Of a stretch of DNA of 64,000 nt, positions 2,873 through 14,605 are shown in pieces. Numbering within the stretch: the stretch's first letter is position 1; each line of letters opens with the position of its first letter. A program made the translations under genes and the position numbers. The notes under the pieces were generated by a model that had not been told where the DNA came from, made no database searches, and saw nothing but the letters and a program-made list of their open reading frames with translations. The DNA lies in NCBI GenBank assembly GCA_963928475.1, contig CAWVFN010000061.1, positions 7,208 to 71,207 of the forward strand, read 5' to 3'. Source of the DNA: Bacillota bacterium. GTDB taxonomy: Bacteria; Bacillota; Dehalobacteriia; UBA7702.

Positions 2873-3091
2873 GATTTGCCCCTTTCTCAATTGATATGGT
2901 TTATTCTATGAGATAAAAAGGTAAAAGGTTAATGTTAGTAGGAGTGCTTTTAAAGAAAAGGCGCTGAGGGGGTGTTTAATTTTTTTAAGGGTTCTTTGCG
3001 GTACTGGAAAAAAACTTCTATAATTGGCAAGTTATTTATGACTTACTGATTTGTGACAAAAAATAATAAGTCTGAAATGACTTGACGAATA

Positions 3092-3120
3092 TAAAAAGCC
3101 GGGCTATAATTAAAGCATAA
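3092..3120 (+). promoter_or_regulatory. Sigma-70-type promoter TTGACG-N17-TATAAT for the PHP-activator operon. An AAGTC-N6-GACTT repeat (3078-3093) overlaps the -35.
   Basis: Read from sequence; 24 bp upstream of ATG 3144. Confidence 0.5.
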
Positions 3121-3143
3121 ATAAGAGAAAGGCTGACTTTGAT

Positions 3144-3935
3144 ATGAGGAACCCTTATGACTTACATGTCCACTCTTTGGATTTTTCCGGCGACGCTGTT
3201 TCATATATGGAGGAGATGTGCCGGGAGGCGATAAAAAAGGGTTTAAAGCGGATATGTTTTACGGAGCACGTTGATTTTGATCCTAATTATGATGATTCCA
3301 TTCCTTTTGTGGCAGAGAAATATGATAGATTTATAGAGAATATGCGGAACACCTATGGTGCTGATTTAGAAATTCTCAAAGGTGTGGAGGTAGGGGAGCC
3401 TCATATGTATCCTGGTGAATACGAGAAAGTATTAGCGGGAGATTACGACATGGTGATGGTAGGTTTACATTATGTCAATTTACCCATGGGTCTGCATTGG
3501 ACAGGCAATGGTGGCAGGGATATATTTACTTTTGCCGTTGATCGTATTTACCATCGTTATTATGAGGATCTTTTGTCAGTAGCCCAGCTAGGTGGGTTTG
3601 ATGTTTTAGCCCATTTTGATTATCCTAAGCGCTATTTGAAAAAAGATGCCGATGAACATGAGCTTATTAAGGAGATTATATCGACGGTTTTGAGGAATGG
3701 CGGCATTTTAGAGATAAATACTTCTCCTTGGCGTAAAGGTTGTGATGAGTCCGCTCCCAGCGGAAAGATTTTATCATATTATAGGGATGCCGGCGGCAGG
3801 AATCTGACAATAGGTTCTGATGCCCATGATATTAAAGATTTAGGCGCTGATATTGACAGAGCCTATGAACTCGCTTCTGAATTTGATTTTACTGCTGGTT
3901 ATTTTAAAGGTCGCAAGTTTTGTGTTCTTAAATAA
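3144..3935 (+). CDS. PHP-domain phosphoesterase (HisJ/histidinol-phosphatase family).
   Basis: N-terminal DLHVHS and the TEH..D metal-ligand pattern typical of PHP phosphatases. 263 aa. Confidence 0.7.
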   Translation: MRNPYDLHVHSLDFSGDAVSYMEEMCREAIKKGLKRICFTEHVDFDPNYDDSIPFVAEKYDRFIENMRNTYGADLEILKGVEVGEPHMYPGEYEKVLAGDYDMVMVGLHYVNLPMGLHWTGNGGRDIFTFAVDRIYHRYYEDLLSVAQLGGFDVLAHFDYPKRYLKKDADEHELIKEIISTVLRNGGILEINTSPWRKGCDESAPSGKILSYYRDAGGRNLTIGSDAHDIKDLGADIDRAYELASEFDFTAGYFKGRKFCVLK

Positions 3936-3941
3936 GGGGTA

Positions 3942-5465
3942 ATGAAATTGACGAGTAATAATCTTAAGAAGACGAAAAATAATGAAACAGAAAATCCTAT
4001 AGTGGATAAAGTGGAAGAACAAGAGGAAACAAGGGAAGAGGCGGGTAAATTGCCTACGGATCTTACCTATGAAGAGCTGTTAATGATTCTTGATCATTCT
4101 TACGATGAAATATATGTTACTGATGCTGATGGTAAAGTTCTTTATGTCAACGGAGCCTGTGAGCGAAATTACGGCGCGAAACCTGAGGATGTCATTGGTC
4201 ATACTCAGGCTGAAATTTCCGATAAGGGCTATTGGACCCCGAGGATAAGCAGTATTGCTTTAGAAAAGAAGACAAGCATTACCCTGGAACAGAAAACTTG
4301 TCTGGGCAAAACCTTATTAACAACGGCCACCCCTGTTTACAATGAAAATGGGACAATAAGAATGATTATTGAGAATTCCCGTGATATTACAGAGTCAAAG
4401 GGTATAAGGCATGAACTGGATATTAGTTTAAAGAAGTTAGCCCGTTATAAGACTGAGGTAGAAGAACTGCGTAAAAAGGATCTTGATTCTGATATAGTTT
4501 ACAAAAGCAAGAGTATGACAAATCTTATGGCTTTAGCTAAAAGGGTATCGGAAATCAATTCCACAGTTTTGATTTTAGGAGAGAGCGGCACTGGTAAGGG
4601 TGTAATATCTAAATATATACATAATTCCGGCAGCCAAAAGGATGGACCTTTTGTATCTATTAACTGCGCCGCTATTCCTGCTGAATTGATGGAATCGGAA
4701 CTCTTTGGGTATTCAGCTGGTTCTTTTACCGGCGCCAGCGGCAAAGGACGCATCGGGCTTTTTGAGCTGGCTGACGGTGGTACCTTGTTTTTAGATGAGA
4801 TCGCGGAGATCCCTTTGCATCTTCAAGCTAAGCTTCTCCACGCCTTACAAGAAAAGGTTTATTATCCAGTAGGCGGCAGAAAGGAAAAGAAGGTGAATTG
4901 CCGTATTTTAGCGGCTACTAATAAAGATTTACAGGCTATGGTGATGAAGCAGGCTTTTAGAGACGATCTTTATTACCGCCTCAATGTCTTCGAGATAACT
5001 ATTCCGCCTTTAAGAGAAAGACCAGATGATATAGAACCTTTGGTACATTATATAATTAATAAGTATAATGAACGGTATGATTTACACCGCCAGATATCCC
5101 ATAGAGCTTTAGATGTACTTATTAAATACCCCTGGCCAGGCAATGTTAGGGAAATGGAAAATACTTTGGAGCGACTGGTGGTAATGTGTCCTGAGGATCT
5201 TATAGATATAGAGGACCTGCCAGACTCACTGCGTTATGAATCAGCCTCGGAAATGTTTCCTTTTCTAAATAAAGGATCTTTAGATGAGGCATTAGAAGAA
5301 GTGGAAAAGAAAATTATACTTCAGTCCTACGAAAAATATGGCAGCTCTTATGAAGTAGCGCGTAAGCTGAAAATTAGTCAAAGTAAAGCCAGCCGCTTAA
5401 TACGTCGTTACTATGGTAGTGTCAAAGATAAAAAGAATAATGAGAATCATGCTGTTTCTCAATAA
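3942..5465 (+). CDS. Sigma-54-dependent transcriptional activator with N-terminal PAS domain, AAA+ sigma-54 interaction domain and C-terminal Fis-type HTH.
   Basis: Walker A GESGTGKG, ESELFGY and GSFTGA (GAFTGA variant) motifs, an R-finger region, and the C-terminal HTH SSYEVARKLKISQSKASRLIRR. Confidence 0.9.
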   Translation: MKLTSNNLKKTKNNETENPIVDKVEEQEETREEAGKLPTDLTYEELLMILDHSYDEIYVTDADGKVLYVNGACERNYGAKPEDVIGHTQAEISDKGYWTPRISSIALEKKTSITLEQKTCLGKTLLTTATPVYNENGTIRMIIENSRDITESKGIRHELDISLKKLARYKTEVEELRKKDLDSDIVYKSKSMTNLMALAKRVSEINSTVLILGESGTGKGVISKYIHNSGSQKDGPFVSINCAAIPAELMESELFGYSAGSFTGASGKGRIGLFELADGGTLFLDEIAEIPLHLQAKLLHALQEKVYYPVGGRKEKKVNCRILAATNKDLQAMVMKQAFRDDLYYRLNVFEITIPPLRERPDDIEPLVHYIINKYNERYDLHRQISHRALDVLIKYPWPGNVREMENTLERLVVMCPEDLIDIEDLPDSLRYESASEMFPFLNKGSLDEALEEVEKKIILQSYEKYGSSYEVARKLKISQSKASRLIRRYYGSVKDKKNNENHAVSQ

Positions 5466-5477
5466 TTTTGCTATTTT

Positions 5478-13586: not shown

Positions 13587-13629
13587 TTTTCAAAGATGCT
13601 CCCTATTAGGAGCACAAAATAAAAGAACA

Positions 13630-13668
13630 AAGGCGCGCGTGTGTAAATCACGCGCGCCTTTCCTTATT
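13630..13668 (+). terminator. Rho-independent terminator AGGCGCGCGTG-tgtaaat-CACGCGCGCCT followed by TTTCCTT.
   Basis: GC-rich 11-bp stem. Confidence 0.7.
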
Positions 13669-13902
13669 GGTGAATTATTTATCTAATTAAAACAAATTTT
13701 ATTTATATAAAAATAAAAAATTTCCGGTATAATTTATTTTTGTCTTGGGTGCTCCCATAAGCAGGGGGAATAGTTTCTATGAGGAAAAATGCCAGTTTAT
13801 GGTGGTTTTATCCCTGAATTTAGCGATTGACAAAACAGTCATTTAAGGGTATGATTAAGTCGTATAGAAAGGTATTTTTTAACTGTTGGGGGTAAGAGAG
13901 TA

Positions 13903-14541
13903 ATGGCTTTAATATTTTTTGACTATGATGGAGTAGTCGTGGATTCCTTGGCGGTGGAAACTAAAAATTTTGTGTCCGCGTGCCACGAAGTTGGTATAGA
14001 TGCTGTTAATACCAGTGATGATATGGCAAAGCTAAGTGAAGGCAATTTTTATCAGGGTCTAATGGATTGGGGCGTGCCCCAGGATAAGCTTAAGGTTGCC
14101 ATGGATATATACGCCCAGAAAAAAGAGTCCCCGGATTTTCATGTAGATGCTCACAAGCCCATTGTAAAGTTATTAAAAAAATTAACAAAGCATTATCCCG
14201 TCTATGTGGTAACATCCAATACCTCAAATACTGTTGAACGCATAATGGCGGAAAACGGTGTAGAGGGTATAAGAGAGGTCTTAGGAGCGGAAAAAGAGAC
14301 CAGCAAGATTCTTAAGTTACATAAAGTAATGGCTCAGTATCCTGGGGAAAAGACCATTTTTGTAGGGGATACTAAAGGCGATATGGTTGAAGCCGCTGAG
14401 GCTGGAATAGATGTGCGTATTGGTGTTACCTGGGGTTGGCAGAAGCCTTGGATCGTGGCATCTGGTAATCCTGATTATATATTTGATGATTTTTCTACTT
14501 TACGGGCTTGGTTTAAAGGTTTTATGAAGGTGACAAAATAG
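13903..14541 (+). CDS. HAD-superfamily hydrolase (phosphatase; PGP/PchP-like subfamily).
   Basis: Motif I FFDYDGVVVDS, motif III K, motif IV GDTKGD. Ends with a TAG stop. Confidence 0.7.
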   Translation: MALIFFDYDGVVVDSLAVETKNFVSACHEVGIDAVNTSDDMAKLSEGNFYQGLMDWGVPQDKLKVAMDIYAQKKESPDFHVDAHKPIVKLLKKLTKHYPVYVVTSNTSNTVERIMAENGVEGIREVLGAEKETSKILKLHKVMAQYPGEKTIFVGDTKGDMVEAAEAGIDVRIGVTWGWQKPWIVASGNPDYIFDDFSTLRAWFKGFMKVTK

Positions 14542-14572
14542 TCTAAAAAAGTCGAAAAAATAATATAGTCAA

Positions 14573-14605
14573 GTCAAATATGATTTTATAAGTCATTTTT
14601 GACTT
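14573..14605. promoter_or_regulatory. Two tandem AAGTC-N6-GA(C/T)TT units (AAGTCAAATATGATTT and AAGTCATTTTTGACTT); candidate UAS for the eut sigma-54 promoter.
   Basis: Located 75-105 bp upstream of the -24 element. Same motif as at 3078, 5478 and 8591-8624. Confidence 0.45.

Follow-up and report, generated by a model that had tools for sequence, protein, structure and literature searches.

A conserved AAGTCA-N4-TGACTT palindrome, predicted enhancer of a PAS-AAA+-HTH activator, upstream of sigma-54 promoters at a methyltransferase and ethanolamine microcompartment locus of Bacillota

The stretch of DNA analyzed here (64,000 nucleotides of contig CAWVFN010000061.1 of a Bacillota bacterium, assembly GCA_963928475.1; the window in what follows) hosts a cluster which opens with an operon encoding a PHP-domain phosphatase and a putative sigma-54-dependent activator. 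Farther on lie a trimethylamine methyltransferase gene (mttB1), a choline/ethanolamine-kinase-family gene (choK) on the opposite strand, an operon encoding an APH-family kinase, an EamA-like membrane protein and an 89-aa protein, a second, non-pyrrolysine methyltransferase gene (mttB2), a HAD phosphatase gene, and an ethanolamine utilization (eut) microcompartment operon (Table 1). The element under study is a palindrome, AAGTC-N6-GACTT, which recurs between these genes, mostly upstream of promoters of the sigma-54 (-24/-12) type. The in-frame TAG codon of mttB1 and the match to the Rfam family PYLIS_3 starting at this codon (6655-6754, 62.8 bits) mark mttB1 as a pyrrolysine (Pyl)-dependent trimethylamine methyltransferase in a Firmicute; neither tRNA-Pyl nor pyl genes were found among the open reading frames (ORFs) of the window which were scanned. 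Scans of the window detected neither an EutVW pair nor a cobalamin riboswitch.

Exact AAGTC-N6-GACTT palindromes occur three times in the window, against 0.02 expected from shuffled sequences, and are found upstream of the PHP-activator operon, upstream of mttB1, and upstream of the eut operon. Four additional sites in the same intergenic regions and in the divergent region between choK and the APH operon match with one mismatch, as does a lone stray intragenic sequence at 56456. The original prediction had placed the first site at 3078-3093, 10 bp off its true position; the site upstream of mttB1 is an exact match where it had been reported, and the tandem pair given as 14573-14605 is real, but its first box starts at 14571. 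Enrichment was measured against 3000 dinucleotide-preserving shuffles of only the five intergenic regions involved (1569 bp, 30% GC). These regions contain seven sites with at most one mismatch, where 0.026 are expected, and a count of seven was reached in none of the shuffles; one further site is present in the 51.9 kb which make up the rest of the window. The motif therefore stands out from the AT-rich background, the test which the original prediction had named.

When every 5-Nx-5 palindrome was enumerated in four intervals upstream of the sigma-54 promoters, as a de novo check, AAGTC-N6 and AGTCA-N4 jointly ranked at the top, tied with the low-complexity pattern AAAAA-N4, all other patterns ranking below. 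AAGTC-N6 and AGTCA-N4 are the same motif offset by one base, and define the core AAGTCA-N4-TGACTT. The consensus derived from 32 sites, found in the window and in relatives, is yAAGTCA-wwww-TGACTTr, 16-18 bp in length. At a threshold of at least 12 bits, the position weight matrix (PWM) built from the 32 sites recognizes in the 64 kb only the seven promoter-region sites.

Four exact TGGCAY-N5-TTGCA promoters and one TGGTAT variant, all kept in alignments, provide the -24/-12 elements (GG-N10-GC) downstream of the sites. The palindrome had been said to lie upstream of every sigma-54 promoter; this holds for four of the five, those of mttB1, choK, the APH/EamA-like operon and the eut operon, each preceded by one or two copies centered 80.5-142.5 bp upstream, while the mttB2 promoter lacks a full palindrome and features half-sites alone. 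Measured from site centre to the GG of the -24 element, distances are 125.5 bp at mttB1, 84.5 and 102.5 bp at the APH operon, 124.5 and 142.5 bp at choK, 80.5 and 99.5 bp at eut. Paired copies abut, being 18-19 bp apart centre to centre, with the weaker box distal and the stronger box proximal to the promoter. A consistent helical phasing between sites and promoters was not found outside the divergent region. The site upstream of mttB1 begins 13 bp past the stop codon of the activator gene.

In the divergent region, the 8609-8624 box sits at the centre of a larger palindrome of 42 bp, whose 21-nt arms (8596-8616 and 8617-8637) are 95% complementary, and the outer part of which is specific to the window, and not conserved in relatives. 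A palindrome with two units had been described at 8591-8638, exactly midway between the two divergent promoters. The palindrome is there, but the midpoint is not: the GGs of the divergent promoters are at 8474 and 8701, with midpoint at 8587.5, whereas the site pair is centered at 8607.5 and the large palindrome at 8616.5. In the weaker box of the pair, GAAT is invariant in the right half in five relatives, and reads GAATT in four and GAATC in L001. Two further candidates were set aside. A mirror site to the right of 8624 contains a 3-bp insertion and is not conserved. A block at 8535-8556, AAAAGTCGAATACTTTTACTTT, flanked by the kinase promoter and the tandem boxes, is kept only in the three closest relatives, and does not fit the motif, as its AAAGT and ACTTT arms are 11 bp apart (AAGT-N13-ACTT vs. 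AAGT-N8-ACTT).

Table 1. Predicted genes, promoters and palindromic sites of the window (positions refer to the window; PWM scores in bits)
Feature	Position	Strand	Remarks
Distal own-promoter site, AAGTTATTTATGACTT, upstream of PHP-activator operon	3029-3044		20.8 bits; centre at about -80.5 from predicted start
Proximal own-promoter site, AAGTCTGAAATGACTT	3068-3083		exact match; centre at about -41.5
Sigma-70-type promoter of PHP-activator operon	3082-3110	+	TTGACG-17-TATAAT; 11/12 consensus positions
PHP-domain (HisJ-family) phosphatase, first gene of activator operon	3144-3935	+	Pfam PHP 8e-23; NCBIfam hisJ_fam 6e-40
Enhancer-binding protein (activator)	3942-5465	+	PAS, sigma-54 AAA+, AAA lid, HTH_50; Pfam and translation
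Single site upstream of mttB1, TTAAGTCGTATTTGACTTAA	5478-5493		exact match; conserved island in six orthologous regions
Sigma-54 promoter of mttB1, TGGTATGGTATTTGCA	5610-5625	+	TGGTAT variant; TTGGTAYG-N4-TTGCA invariant in six loci
Trimethylamine methyltransferase MttB (mttB1)	5659-7170	+	in-frame TAG at 6655-6657; Pfam MTTB on both halves
Choline/ethanolamine-kinase-family gene (choK)	7385-8353	-	Pfam Choline_kinase 4.5e-23; driven by minus-strand sigma-54 promoter
Sigma-54 promoter of choK, TGGCATAAAAATTGCA	8460-8475	-	exact match; conserved in five loci
Weaker box of divergent-region pair, AAGTCAGATTTGAATT	8591-8606		one mismatch
Stronger-position box of divergent-region pair, AAGTCAATATTAACTT	8609-8624		one mismatch; 18 bp from first box; 84.5 bp from APH -24 GG
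Sigma-54 promoter of APH-kinase/EamA-like/89-aa operon (genes 8745-11667)	8700-8715	+	exact match; conserved
APH-family kinase	8745-10067	+	Pfam
EamA-like membrane protein	10272-11393	+	homologues score as EamA
89-aa protein	11398-11667	+	conserved after EamA-like gene
Two copies of TATGCAAAAACGACTTA	11803-11819, 11821-11837		17-nt direct repeat, 18-bp period; right half-sites only
Sigma-54 promoter of mttB2	12021-12036	+	exact match; exact promoters at same place in L003, L005, L010
Non-pyrrolysine MttB (mttB2)	12123-13586	+	Pfam
HAD phosphatase	13903-14541	+	gene-family scan
Weaker box of eut pair, AAGTCAAATATGATTT	14571-14586		one mismatch
Strong box of eut pair, AAGTCATTTTTGACTT	14590-14605		exact match; 23.9 bits; 80.5 bp from eut -24 GG; kept in L003, L007, L010
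Sigma-54 promoter of eut operon	14677-14692	+	exact match
eut microcompartment operon	14801 to ~28639	+	eutS (14801), eutP, eutB, eutC, eutA, shell proteins, adenosyltransferase, aldehyde dehydrogenase, pduL-type phosphotransacylase
cotJB	2442-2696	-
cotJA	2690-2890	-

The palindrome was monitored in eleven distinct loci, the activators of which are 57-91% identical to that of the window. These are a Peptococcaceae HRGM genome (L001, 91%), a Clostridiales bacterium metagenome-assembled genome (L005/L006, 83%), an uncultured Peptococcaceae (L003, 80%), Candidatus (Ca.) Cryptoclostridium obscurum (L002) and a Logan contig (L008), both at 77%, two more Logan contigs (L007, 71%, and L009, 64%), a JGI metagenome contig (L010, 62%), the protein of which is also found in NCBI as Desulfitibacter sp. 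BRH_c19, Ca. Formimonas warabiya (L013, 58%) and Desulfosporosinus orientis DSM 765 (L012, 57%; activator at about 1716557-1717972 of CP003108.1). Another locus, L011 (65%), was treated separately. The closer relatives of the activator come from metagenome assemblies of Peptococcaceae and allied Clostridia, gut metagenomes among them, and named genomes provide the more distant ones. L004, a non-orthologous archaeal AAA+ fragment (49% identity over 45 residues), was discarded. According to tblastn, the gene order PHP-activator, Pyl-type mttB, kinase gene on the opposite strand, APH-EamA-small protein, mttB2, HAD, eut is conserved.

Ten of the eleven loci have the palindrome ahead of the -24/-12 promoters of these same genes, at distances of 65-190 bp, with a single site, an exact match preceding the mttB2 promoter of L010, located 452 bp away. 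The L008 contig ends at the activator gene, and only the own-promoter site is kept there. Conservation was quantified in four orthologous intergenic alignments. Half-site columns are invariant in 42 of 68 cases (62%), other intergenic columns in 122 of 1011 (12%; Fisher p = 5e-20), promoter-element columns in 46 of 56 (82%). Promoter elements aside, conserved islands consist mainly of the half-site blocks in all four alignments, while spacer bases vary freely, the pattern expected for a dyad bound by a protein. TAAGTC-N6-GACTTA and TTGGTAYG-N4-TTGCA make up the islands between activator and mttB1, the two promoters and the block CAAGTCA-N5-GAATT-N3-AAGTCA-N5-GACTT those of the divergent region, and the weak box, the strong box and the promoter those upstream of eut. 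Across eight loci, 23 sites fall in 5.4 kb of sigma-54 upstream windows vs. 15 in the 189 kb elsewhere (Poisson p = 7e-32); the latter include eight conserved own-promoter sites of the activator operon and the 452-bp site of L010. Spacings between sites are kept as well, 18 bp in the divergent region (five genomes), 19 bp at eut and 39 bp at the own promoter, and in five genomes 82.5-84.5 bp separate the GG of the APH promoter from the proximal box of the divergent region.

The association between motif and exact -24/-12 promoters persists where activators are only 57-64% identical, including D. orientis and Ca. Formimonas warabiya. In D. orientis the motif precedes the eut operon, an SSF transporter gene, and the pylBCD-mttC-Pyl-mttB genes, upstream of which (L012, 20240-20720) the palindrome is at 20573 and the promoter GG at 20392, on the minus strand. 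In Ca. Formimonas it precedes the APH operon and an operon starting with tRNA-Pyl. In this region (L013, 18400-18810) the palindrome is at 18753, the promoter GG at 18590, and the tRNA-Pyl gene (18456-18527) about 50 nt downstream, followed by pylS, pylB, pylC and genes for a corrinoid protein, a pterin methyltransferase and a Pyl-type MttB. An additional sigma-54 promoter at 3686 in L003 has a 12.9-bit motif-like match 28 bp upstream, which is too close for an enhancer; the promoter probably belongs to a divergent gene encoding 535 aa. On the whole, the motif is almost certainly a real, conserved cis element.

The protein encoded at 3942-5465 has the features of a sigma-54 enhancer-binding protein, as it matches Pfam Sigma54_activat (6.5e-67), and contains a Walker A motif (GESGTGKG) and a GSFTGA loop, a GAFTGA-type loop being kept in its orthologues. 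The C-terminal region matches the helix-turn-helix (HTH) family HTH_50 (PF18024; 29.2 bits, cut-off 27), and ends in a basic tail, SQSKASRLIRRYYGSVKDKK. The basic recognition helix, SQSKASRLIRRY, is conserved in homologues sharing 48-95% identity, SQSKASRLIRR/KY being found throughout. The protein also gives a full-length match to the NCBIfam TyrR model (251 bits), and a weak match to the structure of the TyrR DNA-binding domain (1g2h). Activator and motif together thus display the sequence-level traits of the sigma-54 enhancer class. The view that the palindromes are sites for a dimeric enhancer-binding protein is supported by every computational test available, as the adjoining protein fits, the half-sites leave a footprint in the alignments, and motif and activator occur together down to 57% identity. 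Judged from these sequence comparisons, the palindrome very probably serves as the upstream activating sequence (UAS) of the PAS-AAA+-HTH activator.

From established knowledge of this class of proteins we infer the following steps. Activator dimers would bind each 16-18 bp dyad through the basic C-terminal HTH. The PAS domain would sense a small molecule, probably choline, phosphocholine, a methylamine or ethanolamine, and the signal would drive assembly of the ATPase ring on adjacent boxes. The AT-rich DNA between enhancer and promoter would then loop, and the GSFTGA loop would remodel the sigma-54 holoenzyme at the -24/-12 promoter, ATP hydrolysis opening the closed complex.

The promoter of the PHP-activator operon is of the sigma-70 type. 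The original prediction had a site overlapping its -35 hexamer, and the overlap is indeed there, 2 bp long. This overlap puts the centre of the proximal box near -41.5 from the predicted start. The layout ATAAGTC-N6-GACTTGAC followed by TATAAT is kept in six loci, TTGAC and TATAAT being both conserved in the alignment, and the distal site is kept 39 bp upstream of the proximal one in L001, L002, L003 and L005. In L007 the region upstream of the PHP gene has lost the box, and the same arrangement of box, -35 and -10 (GAATCACTTTTGACTTGATA-17-TATAAT) is found in the gap between the PHP and the activator genes, directly before the latter. This conserved architecture supports autoregulation of the activator. 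Repression seems the likelier sign, since the promoter is strong unaided and the box overlaps the -35; the two boxes would most likely act by blockage of the -35 hexamer.

The opposite sign has to be weighed, according to which the same sites act positively, either by class II-like activation or by a TyrR-like recruitment of RNA polymerase. The predicted centre at about -41.5 is the classical position of class II activators, a further site is found at about -80.5, 39 bp upstream, and the HTH is of the TyrR type, as judged from the Pfam, NCBIfam and 1g2h matches given above. TyrR can activate sigma-70 promoters. Yet a promoter already near the consensus is typical of repressed rather than activator-dependent genes, the box physically overlaps the -35, and the characterized sigma-54 activators which bind at their own sigma-70 promoters (NtrC, PspF, XylR) repress them. 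Positive control of the operon appears on these grounds unlikely, and would change the sign of the autoregulation only.

Several observations weigh against the assignment of the palindrome to the activator as its UAS. No PWM match of at least 9 bits is present within 250 bp upstream of the mttB2 promoter at 12021, and the choK1 promoter in L005 also lacks a full site within 250 bp. The centre-to-centre spacing of 18-19 bp corresponds to non-integral helical turns. The sign of the autoregulation is read solely from promoter quality and site position, and the latter would suit class II activation too. No member of the rpoN/sigL family was found among the roughly 45 window ORFs scanned. Desulfosporosinus is listed among the genera with sigma-54 regulons (PMC6615313). 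Finally, metagenomes were scanned, without anchoring on the activator, for a composite of AAGTC-N6-GACTT, 58-88 bp, and TGGCAY-N5-TTGCA. Of the 32 matches, 13 count in favour of the assignment, as they are next to an eutS-eutA block or to homologues of MttB, the kinases, the EamA-like protein or the activator itself (42-62% identity); the remaining 19 show no regulon gene. The 19 may be chance matches, their number being roughly at chance level by a rough estimate, or sites for other proteins.

At mttB2, the direct repeat which had been reported at 11804-11840 exists at 11803-11837, and is made of half-sites, with no full palindrome. GACTT/GACTTA half-sites are found at -207 and -189, and the repeat is only partly conserved in L005. 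It is possible, if uncertain, that the repeat is a weak or degenerate enhancer. Either this half-site repeat, some 200 bp upstream, or looping from neighbouring enhancers probably serves the mttB2 promoter; likewise, the mttB2 and L005 choK1 promoters may use half-sites or enhancers 2-3 kb distant.

L011 could be taken as a counter-example, having neither motif nor promoter. The activator homologue of this locus (4573-6570) retains the recognition helix and the HTH, but has lost the GAFTGA loop, which reads GLCPDA. No -24/-12 promoter was found at the locus, and the palindrome is reduced to a single half-decayed copy, TAGTCAGATTTGATCA, just after the gene. As the loop is destroyed, L011 was set aside as a counter-example, and serves rather as a natural control. 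L011 represents either a system in decay or a derivative of the TyrR kind.

The palindrome might alternatively be the operator of a different DNA-binding protein, either the 89-aa protein or an unlinked regulator, acting as repressor or anti-activator of the promoters. The former, which is the sole other candidate encoded within the cluster, is conserved there, its single-sequence AlphaFold model has a winged-helix-like H-H-H-beta-beta-H topology, and the best Foldseek matches of the model are regulators of the PadR family. The AAGT-N8-ACTT core has a 4-N8-4 geometry, which we take to be that of PadR operators. The matches are weak (E = 0.04, TM score about 0.45, none at or below 0.001; model pLDDT 70), the protein is acidic, and its third helix, EKDVLQSLMTATE, is almost devoid of basic residues; no significant Pfam family was assigned to it, its only matches having E values of 0.01-0.22, with scores short of the cut-offs. 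The sites precede -24/-12 promoters by 80-140 bp, a position where an activator rather than a repressor is expected. The HTH of the activator is conserved, and, apart from the promoters and the partly conserved 8535-8556 block, the palindromes are the only conserved islands which could be its enhancer. L011 keeps a homologue of the 89-aa protein but lost the palindrome along with the GAFTGA loop, and D. orientis has the sites, and no 89-aa homologue was seen in 21 kb. A different binder is on this evidence very improbable, and the 89-aa protein is perhaps a partner of the transporter. It is hardly credible that the palindromes are nucleic-acid structures (RNA hairpins, terminators, cruciforms) or chance products of AT-rich spacers. 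Folding does yield small hairpins of -5 to -8 kcal/mol for all sites, and one of -18.5 kcal/mol for the 8587-8642 palindrome, and the mttB1 site closely follows a stop codon. However, chance is excluded by the shuffles, and for most of the sites, which precede promoters, transcription is not expected. The sites lack a following T-run, and a terminator scan of 2850-3200 found no terminator. Across five non-homologous regions, base identity is preserved at 32 sites, and where a site deviates from the consensus (AAGTC...GAATT, AAATC...GACTT), pairing is in most cases lost rather than restored. The long palindrome, moreover, is not conserved.

The UAS reading agrees with what is known of related systems. 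The UASs of NtrC, NifA and clostridial activators are inverted repeats, often paired, located roughly 100-250 bp upstream of -24/-12 promoters, with the activator gene adjoining its targets, as found here. The consensus yAAGTCA-wwww-TGACTTr does not match the TGT-N10-12-ACA sequence of the NtrC/NifA/FhlA type. Nie et al. (2019) reconstructed clostridial sigma-54 regulons in 39 groups (PMC6615313). The PAS-AAA+-HTH order is there the commonest one-component type in Clostridiales, and the enhancers predicted in the same work resemble those of the locus in their distances and in the occurrence of more than one site per promoter. No eut, mttB, choline or trimethylamine gene is found in the 39 groups, in either text or supplement, and the DNA-binding domain listed in its census is the Fis-type HTH (PF02954), whereas the activator described here matches PF18024. 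The closest sites are those predicted for XhaQ (CD1412) upstream of rhaT in Clostridioides difficile, TAAGTTATATATAACTCA and TAAGTCTAAATCAACTTA, which have nearly the same TAAGTY-N6-RACTYA layout (PMC6615313, Table S3). They precede a transporter gene of the EamA/RhaT type. XhaQ sites differ in having AACT rather than GACT in the right half, and XhaQ is reported to control just one gene, that of the transporter. The similarity is striking, and the activator may accordingly belong to a wider clade with related specificity. The best NCBIfam model for the activator is that of PrdR, the proline reductase activator of Clostridioides (NF041552; 412.3 bits over residues 42-481, far below the equivalog cut-off of 795). 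PrdR has the same architecture, but its enhancer is of the TGT...ACA type (PMC6615313), and its regulon is different.

TyrR shares with the activator the PAS-AAA+-HTH order and the HTH family (HTH_50). TyrR boxes are 18 bp long with a 6-N6-6 layout, occur as strong and weak boxes side by side, and include a box over the -35 of the regulator's own promoter, all of which is similar to what was observed here. Weak TyrR boxes are filled cooperatively, and the pairing of weak distal and strong proximal boxes recalls that. The sequence of the TyrR box, TGTAAA-N6-TTTACA, is not matched, the 6-N6-6 layout being common to both. Moreover, TyrR lacks the loop contacting sigma-54 and works at sigma-70 promoters, whereas the activator keeps GSFTGA and is predicted to target -24/-12 promoters, which make up four of the five site-bearing promoters.

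Substrate-responsive control of eut microcompartment operons is exerted by EutR, by EutVW (ANTAR, B12 riboswitch) or by PocR-domain proteins (PMC4207490), unlike the eut operon of the window, which starts with a sigma-54 promoter and enhancer boxes. EutR, EutVW and PocR-type regulators are listed in the bacterial microcompartment locus survey, and a sigma-54 regulator of EUT loci is not (PMC4207490); the activator would thus be a fourth kind. In L009 (2196-4189) an EutVW-like pair, made up by an ANTAR response regulator and a histidine kinase, lies between the HAD gene and eutB, and none is found in the window. In some lineages, control of eut seems to have passed to the sigma-54 switch.

The enhancer is of the textbook sigma-54 type, hence the mechanism is not new. 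What is new is the enhancer motif and the regulon of an uncharacterized activator, the regulon content being the more interesting part. The motif and the -24/-12 promoter provide a precise regulatory code for a conserved, so far unreported regulon, which joins a Pyl-dependent trimethylamine methyltransferase, a gene set resembling phosphocholine demethylation, and an ethanolamine microcompartment, activities which bear on the production and removal of trimethylamine and its precursors in the gut. A phosphocholine demethylation pathway, MthK/MthB, has been described in Eubacterium limosum (PMC12155760). The kinases, the non-Pyl MttB, and the HAD and PHP phosphatases of the regulon resemble this route, with a Eut extension towards ethanolamine, and suggest choline breakdown without release of trimethylamine. 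In the route envisaged, a kinase would phosphorylate choline, the non-Pyl and Pyl-type MttB proteins would remove methyl groups, the HAD and PHP phosphatases would remove the phosphate, and the Eut microcompartment would use the ethanolamine. That activator and enhancer are the master switch of such a trimethylamine-free choline-to-ethanolamine route in Firmicutes of the Peptococcaceae/Desulfitobacteriaceae type, some of them from the gut, with the pyl link included, is a tentative reading of the gene content, possible but short of probable.

The sites found in D. orientis and Ca. Formimonas indicate that pyrrolysine decoding may be under control of this activator in both organisms. Substrate-dependent amber decoding is known from Acetohalobium arabaticum, and the regulator is not named in the review (PMC11467909). 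If the prediction is true, the activator would be the factor which makes decoding of the amber codon substrate-dependent, and the presence of pyl genes and tRNA-Pyl behind the same switch in cultivable relatives would offer a candidate mechanism for a conditional expansion of the genetic code.

Other features of the window were noted. A second eutB gene (40855-42216, minus strand) resides outside the microcompartment operon, adjoining an unscanned ORF (39955-40842) where eutC is expected. No palindrome is found near this gene, nor is a sigma-54 match found in its upstream intergenic region, a 2-mismatch match being inside the gene; this eutB is therefore apparently outside the regulon. A T-box leader (94.9 bits; 31237-31479, minus strand), unrelated to the motif, lies upstream of a gene for a pyridoxal phosphate-dependent enzyme (29764-31185, minus strand). 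Upstream of the cluster, next to cotJA and cotJB, the cotJC gene is apparently split, only the first 36 codons (MWQYEKRLQYPVKIKNPN...) being found at 2328-2438 (minus strand), beside a gene for a large serine recombinase (863-2308, plus strand). The arrangement looks like a skin-type element intervening in a sporulation gene, and is shared by L008, while L005 and L007 have intact cotJC genes of 197-199 aa.

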